Part shown: positions 35,386 through 53,306 of the stretch, one piece after another
How positions within the stretch are numbered: the stretch's first letter is position 1
How the letters are laid out: the number at the start of each line of letters is the position of its first letter
Assembly (NCBI GenBank): GCA_028875725.1
Contig: JAPPCR010000023.1
Span: 405,620 to 469,619, forward strand
Length of the DNA stretch: 64,000 bases
Source: Acidobacteriota bacterium
GTDB taxonomy: Bacteria > Acidobacteriota > Thermoanaerobaculia > Multivoradales > Multivoraceae
Direction: 5' to 3'
Translations under genes and position numbers: made by a program
The notes under the pieces: model-generated
Databases searched by the model: none
The model's input: only the letters and a program-made list of their open reading frames with translations
What the model was told of the DNA's origin: nothing

Positions 35386-36432
35386 TCAGTCCTCCATATC
35401 CGTCGGATAGGTCAGCGGAGTCGCGGGAGACCACCCTTCCCGCTGCGGCGCGTCACCCGTCGAGCTACATAGCGTGCCTTCTGTCCGAAAAACACGCCGA
35501 CCGCGGTGGATCATCGCGCGAACCACGGCCTTCTTCGGATGATCAGGGTCATTCCGATTTGCAGACACGATGGCGCGGTACTTCGGGGACTGGGCCTCCT
35601 CAGGGAGCTTAGCCCCGAGCCACTTGTCGAGCACATCCGACGACACGTTTCTCCGGGAGCCATGATGGGGTACCTGGAAGACGTTGAGCGACGTGACTGG
35701 CTTCCCAAGTTCCAGAGCCGCCTCATAGGCCTCCGTCAGCGCGCCAACGCCTGCATCCCCCGTAAGCAGGATCTTCCAATTGCACGTCTGAGCGAACTGG
35801 ACGACACTACTCTCGTTCTCAGAGCTAGTTCCTTCGGTGTCCCCTTTCAGGTTCTCTTCACCCCAAGCGGCACTCAAGAGAACCCCGTCTGTCGCTGAAA
35901 GCGTCTTAGAAGCAGGAACGGGTGTCTTCTCCGATGCGACGACCAAGTCTAAGTACGTACCGTAGGCCGGCGCCAGGACGGTGAAGACTCCGACCTCCGT
36001 TTCCTGTAACGCATCCTGGATCAGGATTCCCCTCTCGATGGCAAGCGCTTCTAGCTTTGCAACGTTTGGGAAATCACGCCGAAGCCGGCCTATGAGCCGG
36101 TCCCTATCCTGGTAGCGCTCGAACTTCGGCATCAGAGCGTCGACATGCACCCACGGGCGGTTCATCCAAAGAGTTCCGACTTGGAGTTCTTCCAAGACTG
36201 TCTCGAGACCCGCAGCATGGTCCCTGTCCGGATGCGTGAGGACAACGTGATCTACGCGATCGGCGGTGTAGTACGTGCGGATGTGGCTGACAAGCTTCTC
36301 CCCATCCGCTTCGTAGCCACCGTCCACAACGTAGACGTAGTCGACACCATTCTGCCGGTGACGCACGGCTATCGCGTCACCGCTACCCTTGTCACCAACT
36401 TCGAGGAAGTCGATCTCAAGAAAATCACTCAC
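35386..36432 (-). CDS. MBL-fold metallo-hydrolase
   Basis: HPDRDH (HxHxDH) motif plus a downstream His/Asp. Lower-GC DNA. Confidence 0.7.
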   Translation of the reverse strand: MSDFLEIDFLEVGDKGSGDAIAVRHRQNGVDYVYVVDGGYEADGEKLVSHIRTYYTADRVDHVVLTHPDRDHAAGLETVLEELQVGTLWMNRPWVHVDALMPKFERYQDRDRLIGRLRRDFPNVAKLEALAIERGILIQDALQETEVGVFTVLAPAYGTYLDLVVASEKTPVPASKTLSATDGVLLSAAWGEENLKGDTEGTSSENESSVVQFAQTCNWKILLTGDAGVGALTEAYEAALELGKPVTSLNVFQVPHHGSRRNVSSDVLDKWLGAKLPEEAQSPKYRAIVSANRNDPDHPKKAVVRAMIHRGRRVFRTEGTLCSSTGDAPQREGWSPATPLTYPTDMED

Positions 36433-36445
36433 GTCGCTGTTTCTC

Positions 36446-37105
36446 CTAGTTCCTAGCCACCCGTGCCACTTCCGACGAAGCCTTGCAGGCCAAGACTGTC
36501 TGCACTAGCCTGATCCCCGAGTTGCGCGCAGCGCTAGAGACTAGCAAGTACTGGAACAGTAGAGCCGACAGGTACCACAAGGCTGGCTGCAACCGCTCCG
36601 CCCGGAGTAGCGCCATTGGGCCACCCACGGCGAGAATCAATACTGCCGCCGAAGTCCAATCGCGAGAGAGAAGATACGTCCGGTGAATCTGCCTCACCCG
36701 ATCATCGTCCTGTAACTCGTGGTACCAGCGATACCAAAGGGCGTTCTGCGCAGAGGGGTCGGTAGGCAGGGGACTTTGGTGTTCTAGCAACGCATCGCGG
36801 TCGATTCTGGGGTCGGCACCCATGTGCTTAGTGAACGCTCGACACCCCGGCAAGGCGTGCCGCCATCTCCAGAACACCAATCTCGTCTTTGTCTCGGTGC
36901 TTACGACTTCGCTCAACACTCCGACGAGTAGCACCAACACGCTGAGCGGTAGCAAGTCAGCCCGGGCCTCACTAAGCGTCTGCCATACCTCAGCCAAACT
37001 CCTCACCTCAAAGCTCGTGTACGCCACGAGAACGTACGCCAAGACGTTACCCAGCCAAACTGTGACTAGAGCGGGCGCGTTCCTGTCTTTGAGTGTAATC
37101 GGCAC
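36446..37105 (-). CDS. hypothetical integral membrane protein
   Basis: Four or five hydrophobic helices. Lower-GC island DNA. No recognisable motif. Confidence 0.5.
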
Positions 37106-39878
37106 GGGTCGGTCGGTTGGCCAAAGGTCGGCAACCTACCATGTTGCCCACGCCAGCCGCACGTTCACCAGCAGCCGCAAGAAGCGAGTCACGGCGCGCG
37201 GCAGAGGCACTTCCGGTAGGCCGACGCCGGGTGGCGACTCTGAGGGCCTTGAACTCGTGGACCCGGCAGTTTCCACTCGGGCTTCGGCGCAGCTTGCGAC
37301 CGACTACTCTGCCACTCACGGTTGCCCGTCCACTTGCTCGGTAGAAGGGCACCACCCTCACACCGCCGCGGCCGACACGCCATCTTGGTGAAGCCTCGCG
37401 GTCCGCCACTCCCACCGGCTGAAAACGGGGACGCTCCCCACGAGGACTAGCCGCGAACCGCTCACCGCTCCGCGACAGGGCGTAGCGTGTGTAAACGGCC
37501 ATGCCGGGGCCGATGGCCGCCTGGGCGAGGTCGACAGGGGCGACGTTGCCGGATTGCAGGAGGCGAAGAGCACGGGGGAGTTCGGCGCGTAGTGCGGCCA
37601 GAAGCTCACGACGAGTGGCGAGCGGAGCATCGGCCGGGCGTGGCCGACAGACGAGGACGATGCTGGACGCGAGGAGGTTGGCACCCATTCCGATCTTGTT
37701 CAAGAGTTCCGTACGCACAGGCCAAGTGCCGGTGATGGCGAACCCGGAGCGCATCACCGCGTCTAGGAACGTCTCCCATCCCGTGCTGACGGTGCCGGTC
37801 TCCCTCTTCGTTTCGGACTGCTTGAAGGCGTAGTAGATCGTTACGGGGGAGCTGGGATGCGCCTGCTCGACGAGCCGCTTCATGGCCTGCGTCATGCCGT
37901 CGAGGAAGAACTCCTCCGCCTGCTGCTTGCCGCCGTGACGGTAGGGGCTAGCGATGAGCTCCTCGACCTTCGGCACAGCCATGGTCGAGAACAAGTCGGG
38001 GAAGATCGGTCCTAGTGAACGTCGGAGCCAGACATAGAAGAAGTCCGATAGGTCCGCGTAGCCGATGTTGTCGTAGTACGGCGGGTCCGTCGAGATCGTT
38101 CGGGCGGGCCCACCAAAGAGCGAGCTTGCTTGAGCGCTCCCCTGCTTCGCTGATCCTCTCCCAGAGGATGGCAGCCTCTCCAGCGCCTTGACCATGTTCT
38201 CGAGGCTGACCATGTAGTCACCTGCGAAGCCGCCAAAGACGTTGTTCTCGGCAAAGTCCCAGATCATGGGGATTGCTTGCCGTCCGAACAGATTTCGAAC
38301 CTGGGTCTTCGTGACCTCCCAACGACATAGCGCATTGCAGATGTCCGAGAGCCGACTGAGCGCTACCCCAAGATACACCCCTACCGCCTCGGCATACGCG
38401 GTCGCACCGGTGCCGCCGTCGCGCAGTGGTCGGCCGTCGTTGGGAAGACCGGCGGCCGCCGCGTCGAGGCGAACGCGCTCCGTCGCCTCCCCGACTAGGT
38501 CGGAGAAAGTCGTCAGGGCGACGAGCTGGCGGGGGGTGAAGAGGTCCGCCCAAGTAGTTAGCCCGTAAGGTACGCACGTTCCTCCCGTTAGCCGAGCCGG
38601 GACATCACCCTCCGGGATCCACGCAGGGCGTGCCTTTGCCGGTGCTCCCACATGTTCCCCCATGGGTTTGAGGTAGACGCGGCCGCGGTCGCCTTCCGCG
38701 ACCACAGCCATCAACCGGGCACCCATCCGGCCAGCCTGGCCTTCGGCCTTGATGTGGTCTCCACCGATCGGTGTGCCCGACATGAGGCAACGGAACGTCC
38801 CGCGGGAGAGTTTGGTCCCCGACTTCGTAGTCTCTCTGTCCGCCGGTAGCCCGGCTTTGACCGCGAAACGGTAGCCCCGGCCCTCGATCATGGGGTCGAC
38901 GTACGCTTCCTTCCCCTTCTTCGTGGACAGCATGAACGTCGAGACGAGCGGCACCTCTTCGTCGGCGTATGCGGGGTTCGGACTCCTCACCGTTCGCGCC
39001 CACAGCCAAGCGATCACGTTCAGTCTTCGACCTTGGTACTGCACCAAGTCGGGCCGTTCCTGGACCACCTCCGATGTGATCTCAACCTGCGGATAGAGAT
39101 GCCCAATCCGTTTCTGGGCCTCTTCCCGCATCCAGCGGCCGTAGTAGCGCACGTCCTCTGCCAGACCCTGCGCACCGGACCATTGACTCGCAACGAGCGT
39201 CGAATCACTCTTCGACTCGGGGTTCACCGGCGGCCAGGCGGCGAACTTCGGCGGGATCTCGAGCATCGCTTTGCAGATCAGCACGGCCACCGGGTTTAGG
39301 TCGCTTGCATGTGCCTCAAGGCCCAGCCGCTGGGCTTCCAGCGGTAGCGCACCTCCGCCGGCGAACGGATCGTGGAATGCCGGCAGCTTGTGGCGGTCGA
39401 ACAGTTCCTTCGCCTGCGGATGATCTGCGTTCTCCGCGCAGGTGCGCCGCCAGCTCAGCCAGATCTCGCCCCTTGCCTGCTCCAAGAGCTCCTCGTTGGT
39501 CGTGTTCTCCCACTTCACGAGTTCTCTGAGAATCCCGAACAACCGCTCCCGTTCAAGCTCCGCCGCGACCTCGGCCAGTGCCAACTGGTCGGCGGCGGTG
39601 GGGGTCCCGCTGTCCGTCTGCCCACCCTTAGCCCGCCGCTTCTTCAGCTCTCTTCGGGCCGCGCGGCTCTTCGCCGGATCCGACAGCAGCACGTCAACGT
39701 ACTCCGACGGGTCATCCACCATCTGCGCGAAGAGGACAGCCCGCGCCGCCGCCAAGGGCCGTCGCGCCCACCATAGATGCAAGGTTGACGGATGTCCGTG
39801 CCGTATCGACTTCTCCCGTGCGGAGGCTGCGTTGATTGCAGCCAGCGGCAACGCGACCTCGATCAGCTTCCTGCTCAC
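37047..39878 (-). CDS. DUF1156-domain DNA methyltransferase, truncated paralog (C-terminal ~190 aa replaced by non-homologous Arg-rich read-through; possibly a pseudogene)
   Basis: Residues from the GTG at 39878 ([41 protein letters not shown]...) are about 85% identical to the 42853..45849 MTase up to ...AVYTRYA. Beyond that the frame gives [21 protein letters not shown]... and overlaps the membrane-protein gene. No ATG aligns with the paralog start. Confidence 0.55.
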
Positions 39879-40080
39879 GCCAGACCTGTAAACGACTTCT
39901 TCTTGAGGGGCGCTTCGGCGAGGCGTTGGGGCTTCGGCGTGGCGCGAGGTTGGCCATGCTAGCCCAACCGGTTTCGGCTTCAAGCCAGTCCTCCGGTGCC
40001 GGTCTTGATGTCTACTAGCCCGTTTGGGCTTGGGCTCTTGCCCTCGGTCCGCGAGTGAATGAAAGCAGGAGGACGTCAGA

Positions 40081-41016
40081 ATGCAAGACCACCGATCAAG
40101 ATCCCAGCGGGCGACCACGTCAGAGTCGCACCCGCAGAATCCGGGAGACCAATCCGCCCTTGGTTCCACTGCGCCCTTCAAAGTAGTCGCAGAAACGGTC
40201 TTTCGCCGCTACGGACGCTCCTGGAAGCCAGGGACGGCGGCTGTAAACCGCTCGTACCTCCGAAACCAGATCATGCCGTGGTTCAACCAGCGCCCCATCG
40301 CGGGCATCGCCCACGAGGACGTTCAGCTCTGGTTCTCTTCTCTGAGGTCGACGCCTGCGGCGGCGAATCGAGCGCTGCCCGTCCTCTCGGTGATCATGCG
40401 TCAGGCCGAGATCTACGGTTACCGACCGGAGAACAGCAATCCTTGCTCGGGTATCCGGCGCTATCGGTGCCCTAGTCGGGAGCGGTTCCTTACTCTGCCG
40501 GAAGTTCGGCGCCTTGGCGGAGCGCTGGCTGATCTAGAAGCCTCGGTGCTTCGACCCGCCGCGGCAATCCGTCTGCTGCTCCTGACCGGCTGCCGACAAG
40601 GAGAAATCAGGACTCTCCAATGGGGTGACTACCGAGCAGGCCACCTCTTCCTGCGCGACGGTAAGGCGGGACCCAGGATGGTCTGGCTGTCTTCGCCGGC
40701 GCGCCAGGTGCTGGGCCGCCTTCCGCGCAGCGATCGTTGGGTGTTCCCTGCCCTGCGCCGCCCAGGGCCCATGCGTTCTGACGCGCTTCATCGCTACTGG
40801 CGGGCACTTCGCGAGATGGCGGATCTCCGGGACGTGCGGCTGCACGACCTGCGCCACAGCTACGCGAGCATCGCCCTCCAGCAGGGTGAGACCATTCCAA
40901 CGATCGGCCGCCTCTTGGGGCATCGCGACCCGGTAACGACACTTCGTTACACGCACTTCGCCGACGCCTCGGTCCTTGAGGCGGTCGAGGCCGTGGGCAA
41001 CGTGCTGGGGGTCTGA
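40081..41016 (+). CDS. tyrosine site-specific recombinase (XerC/D-like phage integrase family)
   Basis: C-terminal catalytic box [15 protein letters not shown]...[15 protein letters not shown] (R..HxxR..Y). Confidence 0.8.
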
Positions 41017-42365
41017 TGCTGATGCCGACTTTCCGGGACTTCGTGCAGGGCCCCTGGAGGGAAGCCTGCTACGAGCGCTGCAAAGCGTCCACAAAGGCGC
41101 GGGTGGACAGCGCCCTGGGCGCACAGCTGTTGCCGACCTTCGGCCACTTACCCCTGGACGCGATAACGGCGGGAGATGTACACGCTTGGTTCGATCGCTA
41201 CAGCGAGAGAGCGCCCGGCGGCGCAAACCGCACGCTCGATGTCCTACGACAGATCCTGAACCACGCTGTCGCGTGTGGGCACCAAGACGCTAACCCCGCC
41301 CGTGGCATCGTGCGCAACGCGAGCCCGCTACGTACCCGCTTCCTCTCGCGAACCGAGGTTGCGCGCTTGCGCGCGGCACTCAGTGCGCATCGGGGGCGAG
41401 AGTCCGGCCGGCAACAGGCCGACATCATTCGCCTGCTGCTGCTTACAGGTTGCAGAAAGGGAGAGCTCGTTGGGCTCAGGTGGTCGGAGGTGAGCGAGGG
41501 CACACTGCGGCTACATGACAGCAAGACGGGCCCACGCTTGGTGTACCTGAACGACCAAGCGCAGCGCATACTCAGCCGCCAGCCGCGCAACGGCAGCCCG
41601 TTCGTCTTCCCATCGCTTTCCGACTCGTCGAAGCCCCGCTCCTCGGAGTTGTCCCTTTGGCGCAAGGTAAGGCGGGAAGCCCGGATCGAGGAGGTGCGTC
41701 TACACGATCTCCGTCACACGTTCGCGAGCCACGCTGTCATGCAGGGAGTGCCCTTGCCGGTCGTGTCGCGGCTGCTCGGCCACAGCCGCTCTCGAATGAG
41801 CCTTCGCTACGCACATGCGGGTGACCGGGAAACCGAGGCCGCCGCCGAGCGCATCGGCACCGCCCTTGCCTCGGTTCTTGGCGTGCCGACCGACGAGGAG
41901 AAAGTCGGGCTCGTGCCGGGGGAGAAGATTGGAACGTCTATCAGAACGGAGGCTCCCAATGCGCGCCCGGGTCGCGCGGCGACCGCTGCTAGGATCTCCT
42001 CCCCACTCGCACGCCGACAAGACCGCGCTGCCAACACGCTGGCTAGGGCGGTCGAGCGGAAGTGGCCGCACGACTCCCGCATGCACTCCTTGATCGAATC
42101 CCACCGGACTGAGATACGAGCCGTTGCTGGCCGCCACGGTTTCGAGGACGTGCGCGTGTTCGGCTCCATGGCCCGAGGGGACGCAGACGAGGGGAGCGAC
42201 GTGGATCTGCTCGTGACCCTGCCGAAGGGCCAGAGCGGCTTGGCCCTGGGAGCGTTGCTGATGGACGTCCAGGACCTGTTGGGGCGGCGAGTAGACGTGG
42301 TAACGGAGCGTAGTCTGCACCCCGATCTTCGGCACCGGATTCTGGAAGAAGCCCAGATCCTGTGA
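41016..42365 (+). CDS. tyrosine recombinase (second tandem copy) read-through fused to an MntA-type nucleotidyltransferase
   Basis: HDLRHTFASHAVMQG...LLGHSRSRMSLRYAH integrase box. No stop before the MNT domain. TGATG overlap with the upstream integrase. Confidence 0.65.
   Translation: MLMPTFRDFVQGPWREACYERCKASTKARVDSALGAQLLPTFGHLPLDAITAGDVHAWFDRYSERAPGGANRTLDVLRQILNHAVACGHQDANPARGIVRNASPLRTRFLSRTEVARLRAALSAHRGRESGRQQADIIRLLLLTGCRKGELVGLRWSEVSEGTLRLHDSKTGPRLVYLNDQAQRILSRQPRNGSPFVFPSLSDSSKPRSSELSLWRKVRREARIEEVRLHDLRHTFASHAVMQGVPLPVVSRLLGHSRSRMSLRYAHAGDRETEAAAERIGTALASVLGVPTDEEKVGLVPGEKIGTSIRTEAPNARPGRAATAARISSPLARRQDRAANTLARAVERKWPHDSRMHSLIESHRTEIRAVAGRHGFEDVRVFGSMARGDADEGSDVDLLVTLPKGQSGLALGALLMDVQDLLGRRVDVVTERSLHPDLRHRILEEAQIL
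42081..42365 (+). CDS. mntA: MntA-like minimal nucleotidyltransferase antitoxin (nested in-frame in the integrase ORF)
   Basis: GSMARGDADEGSDVDLLV is the GS-x9-13-DxD NTase motif. Internal ATG at 42081. 94 aa. Followed by hepT with a 4-nt overlap. Confidence 0.6.
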   Translation: MHSLIESHRTEIRAVAGRHGFEDVRVFGSMARGDADEGSDVDLLVTLPKGQSGLALGALLMDVQDLLGRRVDVVTERSLHPDLRHRILEEAQIL

Positions 42366-42721
42366 AGGCGGACAGGGGGACCGACCTGGTGCTCCTAGAG
42401 CACATCCGCGACCGCATCTCGCGCATCGGGGAGTACACCGGCGGCGATAGCTCGAAGTTCTTCGGTTCGACTCTCGTTCAGGATGCCGTAGTACGGAACC
42501 TGCAGACCATTGCCGAGTCGACCCAGCGGCTCAGTGAGACTCTCCGGGCCACGGAGCCGGAGATCCCTTGGCGCGCCATCGCGGGCTTCCGCAACGTTCT
42601 TGTGCACGACTACTTCGGAATCGACGTTGAGGCCGTGTGGACGGTCGTTGAACAGGATCTTCCGTCATTGGCGGCGGCCGTCGAACGCATGGCAGCCCTT
42701 GCTGCCGGGACGGCCCGCTAG
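42362..42721 (+). CDS. hepT: HepT-like HEPN toxin (DUF86)
   Basis: RNVLVHDY Rx4-6H HEPN motif. 119 aa. Coupled to the MNT domain. Confidence 0.75.
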   Translation: MKADRGTDLVLLEHIRDRISRIGEYTGGDSSKFFGSTLVQDAVVRNLQTIAESTQRLSETLRATEPEIPWRAIAGFRNVLVHDYFGIDVEAVWTVVEQDLPSLAAAVERMAALAAGTAR

Positions 42722-42852
42722 CCGAAGTGAGCGTTCCGGCAGTTGCCAGTGTCGTCATGTAGGGCAGCCGTCTTGTCGTGCACCGACTGCGGGAGTGACC
42801 GCTTCTGGATTCCGACCGCCTAAATTGGTCATCGCCGCCAGAATCAAGGAGA

Positions 42853-45849
42853 ATGGAGTTGCGTAAGAAGCTGATCGAGGTGGCGTTGCCGTTGGATGCA
42901 ATCAACGCGGCTTCAGCGAGGGAGAAGTCGATTCGGCACGGACATCCGTCGACCTTGCACCTGTGGTGGGCTCGAAGGCCGTTGGCCGCCGCTCGGGCGG
43001 TCATCTTCGCGCAGATGGTGGACGATCCGTCGGAGTACGTCGACGTGCTGCTGTCGGACCCGGCTAAGAAGCGAGCCGTGCATGGAGAGTTGAAGAAGCG
43101 CCGCGCGAAGGCAAGGTCAAGTGTCGGCACGGACTCCGGCGCTTCGGACGATCGGCAGGCTCTGGCCGATGTCGCAGCGGAGCTTGAACGTGAGCGGCTG
43201 TTCGGGATTCTCAGGGAGCTCGTGAAGTGGGAGAACACGACCAATGAAGAGCTGCTGGACCAGGCCACGACCGAGATCTGGCGGAGCTGGCGGCGCGCCT
43301 GCGCCGAGAACGCCGACCACCCGCACGCGAAGGAACTGTTCGACCGTCACAAGCTCCCCGCCTTCCACGATCCCTTCGCCGGGGGCGGAGCATTGCCGCT
43401 CGAAGCGCAACGGCTGGGTCTGGAGGCGCATTCCAGCGACCTGAACCCGGTAGCGGTCTTGATCAACAAGGCAATGATCGAGATTCCGCCGATGTTTGGC
43501 GGTCGGGAGCCGGTGAATCTGGAGTCTCGGAAGGAGCCAGCCGTCGTAGCTCGGCGGTGGCGCGGCGCGCAGGGCCTGGCCGAGGACGTCCGCTACTACG
43601 GTCGTTGGATGCGGGACGAAGCTCAGAGGCGGGTCGGCCATCTCTATCCGCAGGTTGAGGTTACCCCTGCGATGGTCCGGGAGCGCTCCGACCTGAAGCA
43701 GTACGAGGGCCTGCGTTTGACCGTGATCGCTTGGCTCTGGGCGCGTACCGTGAAGAGCCCGAATCCGGCATTTGCCAACGTGAACGTGCCACTCGTCTCG
43801 ACGTTCATGTTGTCAACGAAGAGGGGCAAGGAGGCGTATGTCGAGCCGGTGATTCAGGGCCGTGCCTACCGGTTCGAGGTCCGGGCGGGGCAGCCACCAG
43901 ACGTGGCGACCGCGAAGCAAGGTACAACGGCAGGGAAACGACGAGCGTTTCGGTGCCTTATGTCCGGGCTTCCCGGCACTCCTGTCTCTTACGAGCACAT
44001 TCGCGCACAAGGGCGAGCAGGCGCCATGGCTGAACGTCTAATGGCCATCGTGGCCGAGGGTGACCGAGAGCGTGTCTACCTCAGCCCAACGCCAGAGCAC
44101 GAAGGCGTAGCGGGCGCCATCGCTGCGTCCTGGAAGCCCGACATGCCACTACCGGACAACCCGAGGGACTTCAAGACTCCAAACTACGGACTAACGTCCT
44201 TCGGCGATCTCTTCACTCCGCGTCAACTCGTGGCCTTGACGACCTTCTCCGACTTGGTGGGGGAGGCAACGGAGCGCGTTCGCCTCGACGCGGCGGCCGC
44301 CGGTCTTTCCGACGACGGCCGACCACTGCGCGACGGCGGCACCGGTGCGACCGCGTATGCCGAGGCGGTAGGGGTGTATCTGGCGTTTGCAGTGGACTAC
44401 GCTTCGAACTACTGGTCGACCATCGCTACACCCGCAGAAGGCTTCATCCGTGGCACGTTCGCACGGCAAGCCCTTCCGATGACATGGGACTACGCCGAGG
44501 CTCCTCCCTTTGGAGCGACTAGCGGTAACTGGCTTGCGGGGGTGGAGTGGATCTCGAAGGCGCTGGATTCCCTGCCAGGGGCGACGTCCACGCAAACCGG
44601 TTGCGCGGTCCAGGCTGATGCAGCGCGGCAGACTATTGCGCGTCAGGCCCTCGTCTCCACAGACCCTCCCTACTACGACAACATCGGCTATGCGGACCTG
44701 TCGGATTACTTCTACGTCTGGCTCCGCCGCTCTCTCAAGTCGGTCTTTCCCGAGCTGTTCGCCACGCTGGCGGTTCCGAAGGCCGAGGAGCTTGTTGCCA
44801 CGCCCTATCGTCACGGGAGCAAGGCAGCTGCTGAGTCGTTCTTCCTTGAGGGCATGACAGAGGCGATTGGGCGGCTCGCAGGGCAAGCGCATTCGGGGTT
44901 TCCGGTCACGATCTACTACGCCTTCAAGCAGTCGGAGAGGAAGGGAAGCATCGGAACGGCTAGCACGGGGTGGGAGACGTTCCTCGGCGCCGTCATCCGA
45001 TCAGGCTTTGCGATCACCGGTACTTGGCCAATACGTACGGAGAGAGGGGCAAGATCGATAAGCATCGGCACCAACGCCCTCGCCTCTAGCATCGTCCTCG
45101 TCTGCCGGCCGCGCCCGGCCGATGCTCCGCTCGCCACTCGTCGTGAGCTTCTGGCCGCACTCCGCGCCCAACTCCCCCACGCTCTTCGCCTTCTTCAATC
45201 CGGCAACGTCGCCCCTGTCGACCTCGCCCAGGCGGCCATCGGCCCCGGCATGGCCGTTTACACACGCTACGCGAAGGTGCTCGACGCATCGGGAGAGGTC
45301 GTGCCGGTCAGGGAAGCGCTCGCGCTGATCAACCAGGTCCTCGATGAAGTGCTGGCCGAGCAGGAAGGCGATTTCGACGCCGACAGCCGATGGGCACTGG
45401 CGTGGTTCGAGCAGCATGGCTTCGCCGAGGGGGACTACGGCGTTGCGGAGACGCTCTCCAAGGCCAAGAACACGGCCGTAGCGGGGATGGTCGAGGCCGG
45501 GATCCTCGACTCCCGCGGCGGAAAGGTCCGCCTGTTGTCGCCCAAGGAGCTACCCGACACCTGGGATCCCATCACGGACGCGCGCCTCACCACCTGGGAG
45601 GCGGTCCACCACCTGATCCGCGTTCTTGAGTCCGACGGCGAAACGGGTGCAGCAGATTTGGTCGCCAAGCTGGGCGGGTTCGCGGATACGGCCCGTGAAC
45701 TCTGCTACCGCCTGTACACGGTGTGCGAACGGAAGAAGCGTGCCGGCGACGCCTTGTCCTACAACGGCCTAGTGCAAAGCTGGCCGGAGATCATGCGACT
45801 GGCCCAATCTCGCGAGCCCGAACCCGAGCCCGAACAGATGGAACTCTGA
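42853..45849 (+). CDS. DUF1156-domain DNA methyltransferase (full length, 998 aa)
   Basis: N-terminal DUF1156 block ([19 protein letters not shown]), a methylase core, and an [28 protein letters not shown]-type catalytic motif (N6-A/N4-C class). AAGGAGA SD. Confidence 0.8.
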   Translation: MELRKKLIEVALPLDAINAASAREKSIRHGHPSTLHLWWARRPLAAARAVIFAQMVDDPSEYVDVLLSDPAKKRAVHGELKKRRAKARSSVGTDSGASDDRQALADVAAELERERLFGILRELVKWENTTNEELLDQATTEIWRSWRRACAENADHPHAKELFDRHKLPAFHDPFAGGGALPLEAQRLGLEAHSSDLNPVAVLINKAMIEIPPMFGGREPVNLESRKEPAVVARRWRGAQGLAEDVRYYGRWMRDEAQRRVGHLYPQVEVTPAMVRERSDLKQYEGLRLTVIAWLWARTVKSPNPAFANVNVPLVSTFMLSTKRGKEAYVEPVIQGRAYRFEVRAGQPPDVATAKQGTTAGKRRAFRCLMSGLPGTPVSYEHIRAQGRAGAMAERLMAIVAEGDRERVYLSPTPEHEGVAGAIAASWKPDMPLPDNPRDFKTPNYGLTSFGDLFTPRQLVALTTFSDLVGEATERVRLDAAAAGLSDDGRPLRDGGTGATAYAEAVGVYLAFAVDYASNYWSTIATPAEGFIRGTFARQALPMTWDYAEAPPFGATSGNWLAGVEWISKALDSLPGATSTQTGCAVQADAARQTIARQALVSTDPPYYDNIGYADLSDYFYVWLRRSLKSVFPELFATLAVPKAEELVATPYRHGSKAAAESFFLEGMTEAIGRLAGQAHSGFPVTIYYAFKQSERKGSIGTASTGWETFLGAVIRSGFAITGTWPIRTERGARSISIGTNALASSIVLVCRPRPADAPLATRRELLAALRAQLPHALRLLQSGNVAPVDLAQAAIGPGMAVYTRYAKVLDASGEVVPVREALALINQVLDEVLAEQEGDFDADSRWALAWFEQHGFAEGDYGVAETLSKAKNTAVAGMVEAGILDSRGGKVRLLSPKELPDTWDPITDARLTTWEAVHHLIRVLESDGETGAADLVAKLGGFADTARELCYRLYTVCERKKRAGDALSYNGLVQSWPEIMRLAQSREPEPEPEQMEL

Positions 45850-45862
45850 CCGCCGTCGTTTC

Positions 45863-46276
45863 GTGGCTCTCGATCTCGACGCGGCAAACCGCCTGCTCAC
45901 TGAACTCCCGGAGGGAGTCCAATTCTCACGACGTCCTGATGGCGCCTGGATGCTCCGCACTCAGTTCGCGTTCCCCGACGGGGACAGGCTTCCCATAACG
46001 GCGACCGAGACGGAAGACGGCTACTTGCGTCTCTCCGACCGCGGCCACACCGTCATGCACGCCAGCTATGACAACGATGTCGACGTGCTCTTTGTGGGAG
46101 AACACCGAACGCGCCTGGAAGAAATCCTCCGCAAAGCCGGCGTCGAACAGCATCATGGCGCTCTCCGCATCGACACACGCGCGAAGGACCTGGCCGACGC
46201 TGTGCTCCGTCTTGGCCAAGCCGCCATGAGCGTCTTCGAACTGGCCAGCGTCCGTCAAGGCCCCCGACCGTCGTAG
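45863..46276 (+). CDS. hypothetical protein (137 aa) between the MTase and the DUF499 gene
   Basis: GTG start 13 nt after the MTase stop. No recognisable motif. May be an accessory protein of the defence module. Confidence 0.35.
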   Translation: MALDLDAANRLLTELPEGVQFSRRPDGAWMLRTQFAFPDGDRLPITATETEDGYLRLSDRGHTVMHASYDNDVDVLFVGEHRTRLEEILRKAGVEQHHGALRIDTRAKDLADAVLRLGQAAMSVFELASVRQGPRPS

Positions 46277-46351
46277 ATGCTGGGCGGAACCCGCGCCGCC
46301 TCGACGCTAAGGCTGTGTCCCAGTGGCTCCCGGGGCGCGGCGACCCTCCGA

Positions 46352-49300
46352 CTACTCCCGCTCGAAACCGTGACTGTTGAACTTCAGCGTTTGGCTGTTC
46401 TCCGTCACGGTGCGGACGACATGGTCCGGCGCCCCTTCCGGTATGTCGGCCTCGATCTCCAAGGTCACCGTCACGTTCGCCCCGACGAGGCCTGAGAGAT
46501 GGGTGATCACTTCCTCTGCGATTCGACTCGCGTCGAGACCGGCGCGAGTCGCGTCGAGCGAGACGCTGCCATGGAAGCGCTTGGGGCCGAGGTCAAGTGA
46601 CGGGATCGGGTCGGGAGTTGGGGGCTCGTCGGAACCGACTGGATCGCCGCCCTTGGGGGGCTGAGGCGCAACTGGTTCTTCTTCCGCGTCAAGCTGCTGC
46701 CGGGCGGCGGCTGGTCTGACCAGAATCCCCGGAGCCGCCGGATCCGTCAGCGGGACAATTTGGCCGGCACGGAGTCCTCGATACCGGCCCAACTCCTCGT
46801 CGAAGCTATCCGCGAAAGCGAACGTGTCTTTCTCCCAGGTCAGCAGCACCACGCCGTCCGCTGCGGCCCCTAGCAACACAGCCGGATCCTGGAGACGCGG
46901 CAGATAGAGATACTGCGCGAAGTCCTCGATGAGCTGCGTTATCGATACATGCTCGCCACGCCACAGCGGAACCCGCTCAAGTTCGATCTTCAGGCGGGTG
47001 CCGGAGAACGTGGAGGCAAGTACGTCGTCGCTCTTCAGACGGTTGGCGGCTCGAACCGCGAGGGCGCCGTGGCCAGAGAGCCGGGTCGTCTCCCAAGACA
47101 CCGGCGCAGCGGGGTCCTTCTGCACCGGCGCGAGCAACCATTGGTACGTCTCGGGCAGCCGGGCCGTGACGGCCTCGGCGGCGGCTCGGCGCTGGGTCTC
47201 CGCCTGCTTGACCTGGTGCGGGGAAAGATCGAGTGCTTCTCGCTCCGCGAGTACGGACTCCCACGCCAAGTCACGGCGAACCGCTTCGTCGAGGTCCTGT
47301 AACCGGGTTTGGTCGGGCGCCAGAAAGACAAGGGTGTTGCGATACAGCCGCGGCGAGGCGCCCCGAGATTCGAGGATGGCTGCAGCGGCTGTTTCCGCGG
47401 GGGATCCCGGTTCCTTCCGGTACCCGTGATCGATGCCGAGGACCACGAGGCGGACCTCACGTTCGTCCGGCACTTCGTGGCCAGACTGTGGAGCCGTGTG
47501 AATGCGGCTGAAGCCGGCGGTCTCTCGCAGGGCCGTGCGCAGACTCGCGACGATCGCCTGCGCAACCTTGTCCGGCTCTCGACGCAACTGCTCGGCGCGG
47601 TCTTCGGCCAGCTTCGTGACGGTAGCCCGCGTGTCGTACCAGTAGCGGCTTCCGTCCTGGTAGAGGTAGGTCGCGTTGGCCGCGAGCCGCCGCAAGGCGT
47701 CCCCGAAGACCGCCGACGACTCCCCAGGAAACACGCAGCCCAGCTTGATTCTGCGGTCCTCGAGGCCGCGCTGGGCTGAGCCCGCACTGGGAGCAGAGCC
47801 CAGGTACACGGTCCGCGCCACGCGCCGGCAGGCGGAGAACTTGCCCAGGTTCGCTACGTCGCCATCGATCCGCTGCGGAAGGGCCTGCTGTCCGTCGACA
47901 TCCTTCTCGATCACGGGAACCCAGTTCTCCGGCAGGTAGCGCGTCAGCTCGAACTGCACCCGTGGATCGTCGATCGAGAGATTGGCCGGCAGGATGAGCG
48001 GGCTGCTGTCGCCCTTTTGCCAGAGGCTGTGGATGACCGCCGCCATCAATCGCAGCACGCCGCGGGTCCGCTGGAAGGTCACCAAGGTCGACCAGTCCGA
48101 GTAGAGGCGGTCGAAGATCTCAGGATGAATGGGATAGGCCGCCTTCAGACGTTGTTCGTAGTCCGCGTTTCGACACTCGGGTGGAAACTCATGTTGCTGG
48201 CCTCGGTAGAGATCGGCAAACGCCCGCGCAACTACATCGCGGTCTGTGAACTGCGCTGAGTCGGCGAAAGGCTCGAACAACCGCCGGCGAACAATCTCGA
48301 ACCCCTCCTCGGCGCTCGCGGGCCGCCAGGACGACTCGATGCGGCCGATCACGTTGCGCAGCCGGTCAAGAGCTTCACGGCCGCGCTGGCCACCTACCTC
48401 GACATCGTCGGCCTGAGTGTGCGGGGAGGCAGAGGTGTCCGATGCTGGCAGGCTGACCACGAGAAGACAGTTGCCGGCCAGCTTCGCGGACTCGGTCAGC
48501 GCCTGCGCGAACGTGAACTGCGTCTCGAAGCTGCCAGCGGGGAGATCGCTCTGATCGTGAAGCTGTCGCGCGTAGGCGACCCACTCGTCAATCAGGATCA
48601 GGCAAGGGCCGTGCTCGACCAGGAGCTTCCGCAGAACATCACCTGGGCTCGTGGCGTGCTCGTCGTCCTTGGCGATGCGGGCATACGCCTCTGCACCACC
48701 GAGTTGCCAAGCGAGTTCACCCCATAGCGTCCTCACGACTGTGCCATCCGGCTTGGTGTCGGGATTGCCGGGCGAGATGCGGTTGCCGACCAGCACGACA
48801 CGCTTGACGGTCGGCAGATCCGGCGCCTCGACCTCCCGCATAACTGCCTCGACACCGGACAGGTCGTTTAAGGGAACGCCAGAACAAAGGTGGTAGAGGG
48901 CGAGCATCGAGTGGGTCTTGCCGCCACCGAAGTTCGTCTGTAGCTGCACTACCGGGTCGCCCCCCAGGCCGGCTAGCCTCTGCACGGCACCAGCCAGCAT
49001 TCTCTTGAGGCTCTCGGTCAGGTATGTGCGGCGGAAGAACTCCACCGGGTCCCGGTACTCCTCGCTCCCTTCGCCAAGATAGGTCTGCCAGAGGTCGGCG
49101 GCAAACTCGGCCTGCTGATAGCGGCCGCTGGCCACGTCCTGGTGCGGCGTCACGACCTGCCGCCACGGCTTGAGGTTCTTGGCTGCGCTCTCGACGGCCA
49201 GGCTCGCCTGTCGCCGCCGTTGACCACGCGCCTGCTCATCGAACCGGACCCGGAGCAGTTCCATCTTCAGCTTGTCGAGTTCGGCCGCCTCCTTTGCGGA

Positions 49301-49666
49301 TACAGCCGTCAGCAAGCGATTCGCCGTGTCGAGCGCCCGGTAGGCGTCGTCGCTGGAGAAGAACTCCTGGTGCGCCCAGCGGTTCCTGTGCCCGCGTAGT
49401 TCGCCCACAAAGCCGCGTTCGGCGGGCCCCAGGACATCCTGGAAGACCATTCTCCAGTTGTCCCACATCAGCTTGAGCAGGGCGGCGACGTCCCACTCCG
49501 TCAGGGGCCGCTTGCGCAGGTTCGGATCGTCGAACCAGTTCAGGACGCCGGCGTCGACACGCTTGTTCTTGATCGCGCGCTTCAGCTCGCGGTCGACGAA
49601 CGGGCCAAGGCCCGCCTTCAGGAGATCGAGCGCCTTACCGACGCGCTCGTGATTCGTTGTGGCCAT
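46352..49666 (-). CDS. DUF499-family P-loop ATPase with N-terminal Swt1-like HEPN domain
   Basis: N-terminus RGHRNRWAHQEF (Rx4H HEPN). Walker A QTNFGGGKTHSM. Walker B-like LILIDEWVAYARQ. 1104 aa. Confidence 0.75.
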   Translation of the reverse strand: MATTNHERVGKALDLLKAGLGPFVDRELKRAIKNKRVDAGVLNWFDDPNLRKRPLTEWDVAALLKLMWDNWRMVFQDVLGPAERGFVGELRGHRNRWAHQEFFSSDDAYRALDTANRLLTAVSAKEAAELDKLKMELLRVRFDEQARGQRRRQASLAVESAAKNLKPWRQVVTPHQDVASGRYQQAEFAADLWQTYLGEGSEEYRDPVEFFRRTYLTESLKRMLAGAVQRLAGLGGDPVVQLQTNFGGGKTHSMLALYHLCSGVPLNDLSGVEAVMREVEAPDLPTVKRVVLVGNRISPGNPDTKPDGTVVRTLWGELAWQLGGAEAYARIAKDDEHATSPGDVLRKLLVEHGPCLILIDEWVAYARQLHDQSDLPAGSFETQFTFAQALTESAKLAGNCLLVVSLPASDTSASPHTQADDVEVGGQRGREALDRLRNVIGRIESSWRPASAEEGFEIVRRRLFEPFADSAQFTDRDVVARAFADLYRGQQHEFPPECRNADYEQRLKAAYPIHPEIFDRLYSDWSTLVTFQRTRGVLRLMAAVIHSLWQKGDSSPLILPANLSIDDPRVQFELTRYLPENWVPVIEKDVDGQQALPQRIDGDVANLGKFSACRRVARTVYLGSAPSAGSAQRGLEDRRIKLGCVFPGESSAVFGDALRRLAANATYLYQDGSRYWYDTRATVTKLAEDRAEQLRREPDKVAQAIVASLRTALRETAGFSRIHTAPQSGHEVPDEREVRLVVLGIDHGYRKEPGSPAETAAAAILESRGASPRLYRNTLVFLAPDQTRLQDLDEAVRRDLAWESVLAEREALDLSPHQVKQAETQRRAAAEAVTARLPETYQWLLAPVQKDPAAPVSWETTRLSGHGALAVRAANRLKSDDVLASTFSGTRLKIELERVPLWRGEHVSITQLIEDFAQYLYLPRLQDPAVLLGAAADGVVLLTWEKDTFAFADSFDEELGRYRGLRAGQIVPLTDPAAPGILVRPAAARQQLDAEEEPVAPQPPKGGDPVGSDEPPTPDPIPSLDLGPKRFHGSVSLDATRAGLDASRIAEEVITHLSGLVGANVTVTLEIEADIPEGAPDHVVRTVTENSQTLKFNSHGFERE

Positions 49667-49730: not shown

Positions 49731-52700
49731 CTACCGCGGATCCTCGGCCTTGGCGAGGAGGTCGCGCAGGGTGTAGTTGACGCTGGCGGCACCGAAGTCG
49801 GGCTCACGCTGGAACGGCTGTCTCACGTAGCGAACGGGTGGACGATCTCTGCCGTCGAAGAGGACGATGGCGAGGATGAAGTCGTCCGGCTTGTTCAACG
49901 AGTAGAGGATCTCGTTCTTGGTGACCGTGACTGTCGAGGCATCGCTCTCCCGGCCCTTGACTTCAATGAACCGCAGCCTTCCGGTGGCCGGGTCCCTGCT
50001 CTCGATGTCGTAGCCGAGCTTCTCGACCTCACGGTCGACTGGTTTGAAGCCGAGTCCGCGCTCGGTCTCCATCACGAGTCTGCGCGCCTCGGCGGCAGCC
50101 TTCTGCGTATCCCGTCGCTCGACCGTCGGGCTCGGGCCTTCTGACATCGCTTCGATGAGACCGCGGGGCACGACCAGCAGGCCACCGAGTACGAGGGGAG
50201 GTCGGGGAGAGATCTGTCGATCTCGGTTCAGTTCCTGGAATCGCTTCTGGAGACGGCCCTGCAGCATGTCTGCCCGCCGGCGCGCTTCGCCCGAGTTGAG
50301 CCGGGCGCCGGTCTTCCCAGCCTCTTCGGCCTGCTTGAGTTGCGCGGCTCGATGGTCCCAGTGGTTGATCTCCTTGGTCAGACGCTCCTTCACCGCAGCC
50401 TCGGTCTTGGCGATCAACTCGAGTCGAGCATCCCGAATCTCCTTGAGATGTTCGGGGACGACGTTCGCGACCGCGTACGCCTGGGCTTTCTGCTCGAGGT
50501 CCCGGTCGATCCACTGGCACTCGGGCCGGTCGAGAAGTTCATCAACCGTCGGCTCGCCGTCATCCAGCGGCCGATAGTCGAGATACGGCGCGTAGTGCAG
50601 ATGGCGCGCGACTCCACCGGCGTTGAGTTCGACGTAGAGAACTCGCTTGGAGATGACCTGCCGGTCACCGCTACGGGTGGTGTTGCCGTCTTGCAGGGAG
50701 TGCTCGATGGAGAACAGCACGCGTGGTTCCGTACCGTCGTCTCTCTCATCCACGAGGACCGCACCACGCCGCAGGAGGTCGCGGTGGCGTTCAAGCGTCA
50801 GATCGATGACTGAGTCGAGCAGCGGATGGCCCGGACAGACGAAGTTCGCAAGCGGCTGGTCGGGTGGCGCCACAAGCGGCTTCTCGAACACGATCCGTTC
50901 GTATCGCGGCAGTACCGGAGCGCCAATCCCGATCATTCGATCGCGGTGCCGGACAGACGCTGGCACGTTCGTCACCTCGAAGCGGCCCGGCTCCCTTTGC
51001 CAGAGTTTGCCTCCTAGCCGCTTGAACGCCTCCTGGAAGAACGACCGGATGTAGTGAGGCTGCAGGCGTCGCGCTTCGGCACGCTCCATGTCCTCCCGGA
51101 CCCGCTGCACGCGAGAAGCGTCCATCGCGTCGTGCGCCAACTGGCGCTCTTCCAGCAACTCCTGCAGCGCATCGTGGTCGAGGGCGTGGTCCACGGCGGT
51201 GTCGAGCCGGGCGCGCACTTCCGGCTGTTCCCCATAGCGGATCGCTCGAAGCAGCAGGTCGCGCAAGGGACGCCCTTCAAACTCCAACTTGCCTAGTACG
51301 TCGAAGACCTGCCCACCGAGCGCCTCTCGCGCCTGGTCCAGCTTCTCCAGCAACCGCCGGTAGACATCGCCCTCGCGGGTGTCCTGAGCGACCAGATTCC
51401 AGAGGTGGCAAACCTCCGTCTGACCAATCCGATGGATGCGGCCGAAGCGCTGCTCCAGGCGATTCGGGTTCCACGGAAGGTCGTAGTTGACCATCAGATG
51501 CGCCCGTTGCAGATTGATCCCCTCGCCAGCGGCATCGGTCGCCAGCAGCACCTGGACCTCCGGGTCGTACTGGAAGGCCGCTTGGACCTCCAGGCGCTTC
51601 TCGCGGCCGACGCCACCGTGGATCACGACCACCGAGCCTTCACGTCCCAGGAGGGTGCTGATCCGCTCGTACAGGTAACTCAGCGTGTCGCGATGCTCCG
51701 TGAAGAGCACGAGCTTCTGGCCCGGCGAGGACAGAGGCGGCGGTACTGGACCCGACCCGCGGGGCGTCGTCCGTTCACCGATCTGATCCGCGCGGCCCGA
51801 GGGTGTGAAGATCGCGGCCAGCAGGGCGGCCAGTTCTCGCCATTTCGTGTCCTGGCCGGCGCGGCGCACCTTCAGAGCCAGCGCCTCGAGTTCCTTCAGA
51901 GTCTCGATCTCAGCCTTCAGTTCTGCAATCGACTGAGCCGCCGTGGCCTGGTCGAGAATCTGCGCCTCGGCGTCTTCAGCTTCCTCCTCGGGTGCGTCGG
52001 CGAGATCCTCGAGGTCGTCCTCGTCGAGTTCAGGGGCCAGAAACCTCATGACAAGGGAGTGCTGGCCTCCGCGCTGGAGAACCTCGAGTTCGCGGAGGCG
52101 GCTCTGAAGTCGCTCGCGCCGGCGTCGCAAGGACCGGTAGATGGCCTCGGGCGAAGAAGCCAGTCGCCTCTGCAGGATGGTCAGAGCGAAGCCAACGGTG
52201 CCGGCTCGTTTCGCGTTTGCAAGTGCCTCAGCCCGGTTGAACTCCTCGCGCACGTAGGCGGTGACCGCGGCATAGAGACGGGCTTCCTCGTCGGACAGCC
52301 GGAAGGGCACGGTGTAGGCGATCCGCTCGGGGAACAGCGGCTTGCCGTCGAACTTGAGCAGCCGCTCCTTGACCATACGCCGCATCAGGTCGGAAACGTC
52401 CGTGGTGTGAACGCCGTCGCGGAAGCGGCCCTCAAAGCGGTCGCCGTCAAGCAACGCCATGAACAGCTGGAAGTCCGTCTCCTTGCCGTTGTGCGGCGTC
52501 GCCGTCATCAGCAGGAAGTGGCGAGTCAGGCCGGAGAGGAGTTGGCCCAGCCGGTAGCGCTTCGTGTACTTGATCTCGTTGCTGAAGTACGTCGCCGAGA
52601 ATTTGTGCGCCTCGTCACAGACCACAAGGTCCCACTCGGCCTCCGGCACCTTCAGCTTCTGCTGAACGTCTTCGTCTCGCGACAGCTTGTCCAGGCGGGC

Positions 52701-53306
52701 AATGACGAGGTTCGCTTCGAGGAACCAGTTCCGCGTACGAGCGGCTTCCAACTTGTCGTTCGTCAGGATCTCGAACGGGAGATGGAACCGGCTGTACAGC
52801 TCGTCCTGCCACTGCTCGGCCAGACCGCCAGGGCAAACCACAAGGCAGCGCTCCAGGTCGCCCCGCGCGATCAGTTCCTTGATCAGTAGACCCGCCATGA
52901 TCGTCTTGCCTGCCCCCGGGTCGTCGGCGAGGAGGAAGCGGAGGGGCTGTCGCGGAAGCATCGACTCGTAGACGGCGGTGATCTGATGCGGCAACGGATC
53001 GACGACGGAGGTGTGGACCGCCAACACCCGGTCGAACAGATGCGCGAGCCGGATGCGCTGCGCCTCGGAAACCAACCGAAACAGGGCGCCGTCCCCGTCG
53101 AAAGACCACGCTCGACCCTCCTCGACAAGCTCCAGCCTGGGCTCGTCTTCACGGTAGAGAAGCTCGGCGGCGACATCGCCGTCCAGCTTCTTGTAGGTCA
53201 GCTCGATCGCCTCCGAACCGTGCCAACGGACGTTGACGACCTCGACCGGCTCGTCAGGGTGAACGCCACGGACGGTGCAGCGTGGCTGGAGGTCTTCAAG
53301 GCGCAC
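49731..53306 (-). CDS. SNF2/DEAD-like superfamily-2 helicase with C-terminal PD-(D/E)xK nuclease-like domain
   Basis: Motif I LLADDPGAGKT. Motif II VVCDEAHK. Helicase-C block ATDAAGEGINLQ. C-terminal GYDIESRD...RFIEVKGRE, a D...ExK pattern. GTG start. Confidence 0.75.
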   Translation of the reverse strand: MRLEDLQPRCTVRGVHPDEPVEVVNVRWHGSEAIELTYKKLDGDVAAELLYREDEPRLELVEEGRAWSFDGDGALFRLVSEAQRIRLAHLFDRVLAVHTSVVDPLPHQITAVYESMLPRQPLRFLLADDPGAGKTIMAGLLIKELIARGDLERCLVVCPGGLAEQWQDELYSRFHLPFEILTNDKLEAARTRNWFLEANLVIARLDKLSRDEDVQQKLKVPEAEWDLVVCDEAHKFSATYFSNEIKYTKRYRLGQLLSGLTRHFLLMTATPHNGKETDFQLFMALLDGDRFEGRFRDGVHTTDVSDLMRRMVKERLLKFDGKPLFPERIAYTVPFRLSDEEARLYAAVTAYVREEFNRAEALANAKRAGTVGFALTILQRRLASSPEAIYRSLRRRRERLQSRLRELEVLQRGGQHSLVMRFLAPELDEDDLEDLADAPEEEAEDAEAQILDQATAAQSIAELKAEIETLKELEALALKVRRAGQDTKWRELAALLAAIFTPSGRADQIGERTTPRGSGPVPPPLSSPGQKLVLFTEHRDTLSYLYERISTLLGREGSVVVIHGGVGREKRLEVQAAFQYDPEVQVLLATDAAGEGINLQRAHLMVNYDLPWNPNRLEQRFGRIHRIGQTEVCHLWNLVAQDTREGDVYRRLLEKLDQAREALGGQVFDVLGKLEFEGRPLRDLLLRAIRYGEQPEVRARLDTAVDHALDHDALQELLEERQLAHDAMDASRVQRVREDMERAEARRLQPHYIRSFFQEAFKRLGGKLWQREPGRFEVTNVPASVRHRDRMIGIGAPVLPRYERIVFEKPLVAPPDQPLANFVCPGHPLLDSVIDLTLERHRDLLRRGAVLVDERDDGTEPRVLFSIEHSLQDGNTTRSGDRQVISKRVLYVELNAGGVARHLHYAPYLDYRPLDDGEPTVDELLDRPECQWIDRDLEQKAQAYAVANVVPEHLKEIRDARLELIAKTEAAVKERLTKEINHWDHRAAQLKQAEEAGKTGARLNSGEARRRADMLQGRLQKRFQELNRDRQISPRPPLVLGGLLVVPRGLIEAMSEGPSPTVERRDTQKAAAEARRLVMETERGLGFKPVDREVEKLGYDIESRDPATGRLRFIEVKGRESDASTVTVTKNEILYSLNKPDDFILAIVLFDGRDRPPVRYVRQPFQREPDFGAASVNYTLRDLLAKAEDPR

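Follow-up and report, generated by a model that had tools for sequence, protein, structure and literature searches.

The subject of this analysis is a 64,000-nucleotide stretch of an Acidobacteriota contig (JAPPCR010000023.1; hereafter, the window) which carries a Hma locus with two inverted copies of the methyltransferase gene hmaB and, between these copies, a pair of overlapping tyrosine recombinase genes. Judging from sequence comparisons, we think it probable that this locus is a functional recombinase-linked inversion switch, or shufflon, of hmaB, while a specific scheme with two crossover sites and four states has, in our estimate, about even chances of being correct. The locus combines several hallmarks of a shufflon, i.e., inverted repeats within paralogous coding sequences (one of them incomplete), recombinases with intact catalytic residues, and both orientations among relatives. 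A first-pass annotation of the window had already proposed an invertible shufflon or phase-variable switch here, and this proposal is now supported by 13 further loci, monophyletic recombinases, opposite orientations in relatives, purifying selection, and reassortment of two variable modules, V1 and V2. The features of the locus, in window coordinates and with SP1 and SP2 denoting the two putative switch points, are these:

37047..37479, minus strand: read-through tail of arm A past SP2, 144 Arg/Gly/Ser-rich codons
37480..39878, minus strand: arm A, the silent or alternative hmaB' (amino acids [aa] 1-800, GTG start at 39878), an intact open reading frame (ORF)
37480..37556, unstranded: SP2 repeat on the arm A side, 77 bp that match 45196-45272 perfectly, up to the exact point where homology stops (...GGCATGGCCGTTTACACACGCTACGC)
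38097..38370, minus strand: V2 of arm A, of allele type 'b' (...LSRLSDICN...) and sharing 32% identity with the arm B counterpart
38371..38440, unstranded: SP1 repeat on the arm A side, 70 bp that match 44312-44381 perfectly, up to the exact point where V2 begins (...GCCGAGGCGGTAGGGGTGTATCT)
38520..38867, minus strand: V1 of arm A (limits approximate), ~51% identical to V1 of arm B
40081..41016, plus strand: Int1, Xer-like tyrosine recombinase with an intact R-K-H-R-H-Y set
41016..42365, plus strand: Int2-MntA, tyrosine recombinase (catalytic set intact) plus MntA-type nucleotidyltransferase domain
42362..42721, plus strand: HepT-family RNase toxin, whose GTG start overlaps the Int2-MntA stop codon
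42853..45273, plus strand: arm B, which makes up the first, variable 807 codons of the expressed hmaB and has an AAGGAGA Shine-Dalgarno (SD) sequence and an ATG start
44312..44381, unstranded: SP1 repeat on the arm B side
45196..45272, unstranded: SP2 repeat on the arm B side
45274..45849, plus strand: constant C-terminal domain of HmaB (aa 808-998), single copy, outside the invertible segment
46352..49666, minus strand: hmaC, HEPN-fused DUF499 ATPase
49731..53306, minus strand: hmaA, SNF2 helicase with a C-terminal NOV_C/DUF3883 domain

Alignment bears out the inverted paralogous arms of the first-pass annotation and maps their ends to 37480-39878 (minus strand) and 42853-45273 (plus strand). 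Their similarity had been overestimated, however: instead of ~85% at both levels, we measure 70% amino acid identity over 819 residues and about 73% nucleotide identity overall (76-92% in ungapped blocks), and a pair of antisense ORFs described as near-identical turned out to be 71% identical and a mere mirror of the repeat. The similarity is strongly mosaic, the perfect 77-bp and 70-bp runs contrasting with blocks of near-random similarity, and it stops, as had been noticed, after ...AVYTRYA, at the end of the 77-bp run. Arm A carries DUF1156, motif I (FAGGG, aa 172-176), V1, V2, and motif IV (DPPY, aa 598-601); the corresponding landmarks of arm B are motif I (FAGGG) at aa 175-179, V1 at aa 341-460, V2 at aa 511-600, and motif IV (DPPY) at aa 604-607, with SP1 after aa 510 and SP2 after aa 807. 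Copy B, at 998 aa, is full length, spans positions 8 to 959 of the 967 in the PADLOC HmaB profile, and equals P0001, a 'DUF1156 domain-containing protein [Acidobacteriota bacterium]' encoded on a 1.32-Mb ENA contig, whose database entry begins two codons downstream of the copy B start. The profile match of copy A ends at position ~782 of 967, in keeping with the annotated lack of the last ~190 aa. Copy A also runs into the neighboring gene as described, in that its frame continues for 144 codons to 37047 and overlaps an ORF at 36446-37105; this tail has neither homology to the HmaB C-terminus nor similarity to anything, and is probably non-coding junk. Local tblastn found no leftover HmaB C-terminal domain elsewhere in L001 (window ~32.9-55.8 kb), and a scan of 36.3-46.4 kb for sigma-70 promoters and terminators gave no excess over shuffled controls.

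By component content, though not by gene order, the locus fully belongs to the Hma family of anti-phage defense systems, in which HmaB is a DUF1156 N6-adenine methyltransferase. PADLOC scores HmaA at 1659 bits over its full length, HmaB at 1488 bits, and HmaC at 1119 bits; among Pfam models, HmaB matches DUF1156 (95 bits), HmaA matches SNF2-rel_dom, Helicase_C, and NOV_C, and HmaC matches HEPN_Swt1 and DUF499. Described Hma systems (PADLOC, PMC8565338; the Halomonas HmaA study, PMC11232893; PMC12839542) have the same three components, each of which matches its profile here with a very high score; the fusion of the ATPase to HEPN and the nuclease-like domain at the C-terminus of the helicase are shared as well. 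The arrangement, in contrast, is different: canonical Hma is a co-directional hmaA-hmaB-hmaC operon with a single hmaB and no recombinase, whereas here hmaA and hmaC lie on the minus strand, facing a convergent hmaB on the plus strand that is detached from the operon, duplicated, and proposed to be invertible. Among 80 metagenome Hma loci with an HmaB 62-69% identical to copy B, gene pairs were all co-directional in the order A-B-C, all three genes were present in 45, and a recombinase or second hmaB was found within the available flanks of none (0/80); the inversion switch is not general to Hma. A 2026 survey, which renamed the family 'type-1 DUF499-centred BREX-related' systems, describes the C-terminal region of HmaB as a triad of helix-turn-helix-like domains, and the terms 'recombinase', 'invert', and 'shufflon' do not occur in its text (PMC12839542). 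Nor is this a PglX or an hsdS locus; copy B matches the HmaB/DUF1156 and MTase_II models and yields no PglX match, and it has hmaC and hmaA as neighbors rather than the brxA/B/C, pglZ, and brxL of BREX type 1.

Additional loci were gathered by scanning a genome collection with Int1, by local tblastn, and through five context look-ups of the closest HmaB homologues. The layout arm'-Int1-Int2-arm, in which an inverted hmaB' that lacks its C-terminal end is followed by Int1, Int2, and a complete hmaB, recurs in 13 of them: L002, L004, and L005 from Acidobacteriota, L006 from a Verrucomicrobiota metagenome-assembled genome (MAG), L011, L013, and L027 from Longimicrobiales MAGs, and L042, L043, and L124-L127, which carry the HmaB most similar to that of the window and are grouped by this similarity, not by taxonomy. 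Going by these sequences, the layout is conserved across three phyla. L127 represents a different topology of the same switch, with the arms tail to tail, Int1-Int2 outside them, and hmaA and hmaC flanking the whole; this region spans L127 10001-18133, its hmaB copies lying at 10001-13078 (plus strand) and 13085-15769 (minus strand).

In 11/11 two-arm loci, homology between the arms breaks at the same two codons, SP1 after ...AVGVYL and SP2 after ...VYTRYA. The arms of a locus agree at 27-30 of the 30 nt before these points vs 6-18 of the 30 nt after them, with the exceptions of L004 at SP1 and L126 at SP2, where the arms have been homogenized or homology extends slightly further. Third-position identity in identical codons is 0.80 for SP1 and 0.88 for SP2, compared with 0.55-0.71 in four control segments whose protein-level conservation equals or exceeds that of the SP1 and SP2 stretches. 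Since the same stretches differ at synonymous sites between phyla, their identity within a locus reflects concerted evolution, not just protein constraint.

In the switch we propose, the constant 3' part of hmaB, encoding the C-terminal domain, would stay fixed beside hmaC-hmaA, and two alternative ~800-codon 5' parts would face each other head to head, each with its own start codon (AAGGAGA plus ATG for the distal arm, GTG for the proximal arm). Recombination between the arms would invert the segment that holds Int1 and Int2; a crossover at SP2 would swap the whole 5' part, and one at SP1 solely the part upstream of SP1. With two crossover points, V1 and V2 could therefore be combined in four ways, each state leaving one complete gene at the expression site. 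Starting from the state seen in the window, an SP2 inversion would join V1a-V2a to the C-terminal domain, an SP1 inversion would produce V1a-V2b, and both inversions V1b-V2a, such that the resulting population would differ in the motif that is methylated as self and restricted in phage. Int1 and Int2 are the putative catalysts of this exchange, because they are in strict monophyletic association with the arms and have intact active sites, and we infer SP1 and SP2 to be the places where exchange occurs.

The first-pass annotation had suggested a comparison with related genomes, which indeed found the segment reversed in L042 and L043, with the breakpoint at a repeat end. Specifically, window positions 37480-44383 align with L042 as one reversed block (81.7% over 6.9 kb), whereas 44654-53322, comprising the C-terminal domain, hmaC, and hmaA, align in forward direction at 87%, and the breakpoint, 37480, is the outer end of the repeat. 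L043 aligns like L042, the gene layout of L124 is the same as in these two, and the full-length gene in all three is the Int1-adjacent arm. The protein expressed in L042, P0010, has an A-like 5' part, starts at a GTG homologous to 39878, and is 86% identical to the predicted chimera of arm A and the C-terminus. L005 shows a flipped Int cassette with a 'b'-type V2 still on the truncated arm, which is the state that an SP1 inversion would yield. The orientation in L042, L043, L124, and L005 is opposite to that in the window and L004, and parsimony on the Int1 tree (neighbor joining, no bootstrap) implies two or more flips in the history of the acidobacterial clade.

L125 and L126, which are assemblies of the same population, are 99.7% identical over 19 kb and differ in two places only. 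One is a 470-bp silent-arm patch (L125 4587-5056) with frameshifting indels in L125, whose sequence there agrees with that of the expressed arm at 34 of the 46 differing positions; the other lies at ~18.0-19.4 kb. The patch may have arisen by gene conversion, but may also represent a mixed-population consensus or a long-read assembly or consensus error. We rejected contig ends at the repeats (L002, L003, and L043) as a sign of heterogeneity, because any perfect inverted repeat breaks short-read assemblies.

L004 (Ca. Multivorans sp. OZ244786) has lost 1.6 kb, with a junction at 15166-15175 (compare window 45273 and ~46913). The HmaB C-terminus, the small DUF1828 gene next to it, and ~187 codons at the 3' end of hmaC are gone; of the two deletion endpoints, one coincides exactly with SP2, and the other shows a CT[A/G]CGCGAAG match. 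The L004 arms are identical over 932 bp, and its copy of the Hma system is probably dead.

Comparing arms A and B over 800 aligned codons, we find a synonymous divergence (dS) of ~0.9, a ratio of nonsynonymous to synonymous divergence (dN/dS) of 0.22, and no stop or frameshift; dS falls to ~0.19 solely in two windows that contain the perfect tracts. Arm A is thus maintained under purifying selection and is not decaying. Divergence between the arms peaks in V1 (51% identity) and V2 (32%), which coincide with the most variable regions among 206 HmaB homologues and both sit between motif I and motif IV. In MtsC of the MANTIS system, a solved relative, this interval forms the centrally located target-recognition domain (TRD), and because of the matching position V1 and V2 may be expected to set sequence specificity. 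The C-terminal domain, in turn, is highly conserved across the family and is missing from exactly one copy per locus. Typed by similarity at arbitrary identity thresholds, V1/V2 alleles are restricted neither to one arm position (proximal or distal) nor to one kind of copy (full or truncated): V2-b pairs with V1-B, V1-F, and V1-H, and V1-A pairs with V2-a, V2-l, V2-g, and V2-c. The two modules are thus freely reassorted between loci. A PDB sequence search with HmaB gave no match, and an AlphaFold2 model built from a 63-sequence alignment (mean predicted local distance difference test score 48, predicted template modeling score 0.31) was too poor for SP1 and SP2 to be located on a fold.

The two tyrosine recombinases had been annotated as coupled through a TGATG overlap, and this is what we see, Int1 (40081-41016) ending and Int2 (41016-42365) starting at 41016. 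Their designation as XerC/D-like can be kept for the Xer-like fold; the best NCBIfam XerC/XerD scores are 46-70 bits vs equivalog cut-offs of 220-335, and the two proteins are Xer-like in fold only rather than XerC/XerD dimer resolvases. The R-K-H-R-H-Y catalytic set is kept in 20/20 Hma-linked Int sequences. A neighbor-joining tree (no bootstrap support) groups the Hma-linked Int1 sequences in one clade and the Hma-linked Int2 sequences in another; the two clades branch congruently, and both are separate from the many free pairs. The adjacent genes had been read as an MntA/HepT toxin-antitoxin (TA) pair. HepT is present as a gene at 42362-42721 (Pfam 93.9 bits; NCBIfam 62.6 vs a cut-off of 60), but MntA (Pfam NTP_transf_2 54.5 bits; NCBIfam 43, below the cut-off of 60) is not separate: its domain (aa ~355-449) is joined in frame to Int2 through a ~70-aa linker. 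Int2-MntA is a single open frame in 7/7 acidobacterial loci (window, L002, L003, L004, L005, L042, and L043), all of which also have HepT, and the linker has diverged into two types across these loci with the frame still open; MntA begins with a conserved Met, from which translation could also initiate separately. We know of no described recombinase-antitoxin fusion. L125 and L126 carry FitA-like and MazE-like genes in place of MntA/HepT, and the loci of non-acidobacterial phyla have no TA genes.

The free relatives of the recombinase pair (L007-L010, L014-L032, and L039; e.g., L022 9591-11993) come mostly from Alphaproteobacteria MAGs. They are compact units of ~2.4 kb with nothing but two recombinase genes ~290 bp apart, and several diverged copies per genome (about 75-86% identical) occur with unrelated flanks. 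Such a unit has the appearance of a small mobile element with two recombinases. It is not one of the 'BIM' elements, an identification we rejected since these consist of one recombinase plus an unrelated protein. Likewise, we rejected as a shufflon a 4.8-kb region of L034 (3140-7986; 77% self-reverse-complement, upstream of a lone Int1-like gene), which consists of two convergent IS66-family transposase copies and a DruA-like ORF. A more far-reaching version of our model, which we put forward tentatively and consider rather doubtful as a whole, is that a domesticated recombinase pair derived from the 2.4-kb element drives the four-state shufflon and that the Int2-MntA fusion couples switching to TA status. 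The two switch points could then be served by one recombinase each or by a XerC/D-like heteromer, and recombinase level or activity would follow TA status, for example during phage stress.

Several observations weigh against an inversion switch. Five contigs that carry the window's own HmaB share the same neighbors and a single state, and the chimera of arm A and the C-terminus has no 100%/100% match in a collection of 5.8 billion proteins; the evidence on orientation comes from between-genome comparison of assemblies, not from reads of one population. We found no recombinase core site or dyad motif at SP1 or SP2, where a motif common to both amounted to only ~6 nt (GTGTAT-like) across phyla and was discarded as insignificant, and the common break points could stem from one ancestral duplication instead of marking crossover sites. 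Copy A starts at a GTG with a weak SD sequence in the window. The first-pass annotation was right about the missing ATG, yet this is no defect, as L042 and L043 use the homologous GTG, there with a better SD sequence, to start their full-length, expressed copy. The specificity role of V1 and V2 is argued from position, by analogy, and the free recombinase pairs most closely related to Int1-Int2 behave as a mobile element does. Lastly, large homogenized tracts are present in L004, L005, L027, L124, and L127. These tracts, which lie at different places in different loci, show that gene conversion or homologous recombination acts on the arms as well.

The last point leads to the most serious alternative, namely that RecA-type homologous recombination and gene conversion make both the inversions and the homogenization, and that the Int1-Int2(-TA) cassette is a mobile-element passenger. 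This would agree with the multi-copy 2.4-kb units in unrelated flanks, with long, perfectly homogenized tracts whose place varies from locus to locus, with the failure to identify a core site, and with TA modules in the cassette, which are typical of selfish elements. We nevertheless consider it unlikely. Hma-linked pairs are monophyletic and always located at the arms (between them or, in L127, beside them) in three phyla, with their catalytic residues intact; arms of 73-78% identity with perfect tracts of only 70-77 bp are a poor RecA substrate; in each locus, these tracts are placed precisely at the two boundaries of the modules; and the L004 deletion ends at SP2.

Less probable still is a static remnant, i.e., that copy A is a functionless partial hmaB duplicate or foreign fragment left by insertion of the integrase/TA cassette and that there is no switching. 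A decayed partial duplication was the other option raised by the first-pass annotation, and the lack of a C-terminal domain and an ATG, the weak SD sequence, the one orientation in five assemblies of the window's strain, and L004 as proof that such loci can decay would all be compatible with it. It is a poor fit, however, to an 800-codon ORF that is intact in every locus at dS ~0.9, with a dN/dS of 0.22 in the window, to perfect 70-77-bp tracts that abut the homology breaks, to a truncation point and layout shared with 13 other loci across phyla, to both orientations among relatives, and to an A-type 5' part that is expressed as a full-length gene in L042. Least probable is that both copies are active at once without switching, the truncated one as a stand-alone methyltransferase for a second protective methylation; although arm A keeps motif I, motif IV, its own start codon, and the signature of purifying selection, this reading conflicts with the absence of a family-wide conserved C-terminal domain from exactly one copy per locus and leaves the recombinase pair, the perfect tracts at SP1 and SP2, and the flipped orientations unexplained.

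An inversion switch of hmaB, the reading we prefer, would have known counterparts. Phase-variable specificity is known for Type I, III, and IIG restriction-modification systems, DISARM-like systems, and BREX-1, and is thought to hedge populations against phages that escape by methylation. Inversion of BREX type-1 PglX was reportedly first noted by Goldfarb and colleagues in 2015. Programmed inversions of PglX, DrmMI-like, and Cj0031-like methyltransferases have been catalogued (PMC9881135), in the main text of which DUF1156 and DUF499 are not mentioned. The PglX switch of Lacticaseibacillus rhamnosus (Milman et al., NAR 2023, PMC9881135) resembles the present locus in having an adenine methyltransferase, an inverted partial second copy, and an adjacent recombinase, as well as nested inversions that swap an internal specificity module between constant termini, with some states lacking the C-terminus. 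It differs in that the target here is a DUF1156 HmaB, in which motif I precedes and motif IV follows a central TRD (the HmaB-related MtsC is described as group alpha, PglX as group gamma), and in that two recombinases are located inside the invertible segment. Moreover, the arms in the window stand head to head including the start codon, so that each proposed hmaB state keeps a complete gene, unlike the single-inversion intermediates without a C-terminus in L. rhamnosus.

With the hsdS shufflons (Streptococcus pneumoniae SpnD39III/ivr, PsrA/CreX; PMC4948785, PMC7096588), the locus shares a tyrosine recombinase, repeats in paralogous specificity genes, two variable recognition modules that are reassorted, and one expressed copy alongside silent partial copies. 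In contrast to hsdS, the modules are part of the methyltransferase itself and not of a separate S subunit, the repeats are 2.4 kb of diverged coding sequence, and the recombinases are paired. Adjacent, sometimes overlapping, co-evolving tyrosine recombinase genes are a feature of RIT trios and of Tn554 TnpA/TnpB. The likeness consists in the adjacent co-evolving recombinases and the compact, multi-copy 2.4-kb unit of free Int1-Int2; the differences are that the genes number two, not three, and that the Hma-linked clade, tied to the hmaB arms, gives no sign of independent mobility (RIT elements are mentioned in PMC3414803).

Additional genes accompany the Hma genes in the window and elsewhere. 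A small DUF1828 gene sits between hmaB and hmaC (window 45950-46276), and a 260-aa protein with a DUF1828 domain is encoded at the far left of L124. Between hmaB and hmaC, several shufflon-bearing Hma loci have an additional ATPase gene of the AAA_15/AAA_21 (OLD/ABC) type (L043 8829-10810; L124 13191-15211; L125/L126 13092-14648; L127 18142-20012), joined in L043, L124, and L127 by a small ORF; the window is without both. Directly outside the truncated arm, a region of low GC content (35386-37105; 0.58-0.62) which is absent from the syntenic site of L004 encodes an MBL-fold protein (35386-36432; 422 bits vs the PADLOC candidate PDC-M48B) and, beside it, the unannotated 219-aa ORF at 36446-37105; together, these two may constitute a second defense module. 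To the right of the Hma locus, a P4-type integrase gene (55125-56315) lies ~2 kb from a tRNA-Ser gene (58241-58332), an adjacency which suggests a genomic island; a search within the window for an att repeat derived from this tRNA-Ser returned only a chance 14-mer in tRNA-Gln.

Taken as a switch, this locus is a new target and a new architecture for a known kind of mechanism, distinguished by arms that stand head to head and contain the start codon, by a C-terminal domain that stays constant, and by a conserved recombinase pair. If our reading is true, phase-variable specificity extends to the Hma, or type-1 BREX-related, family. The V1 and V2 modules would then provide natural methyltransferase allele pairs for mapping DNA recognition in this family, and the link to a compact two-recombinase mobile element would offer a concrete case of recombinase domestication.

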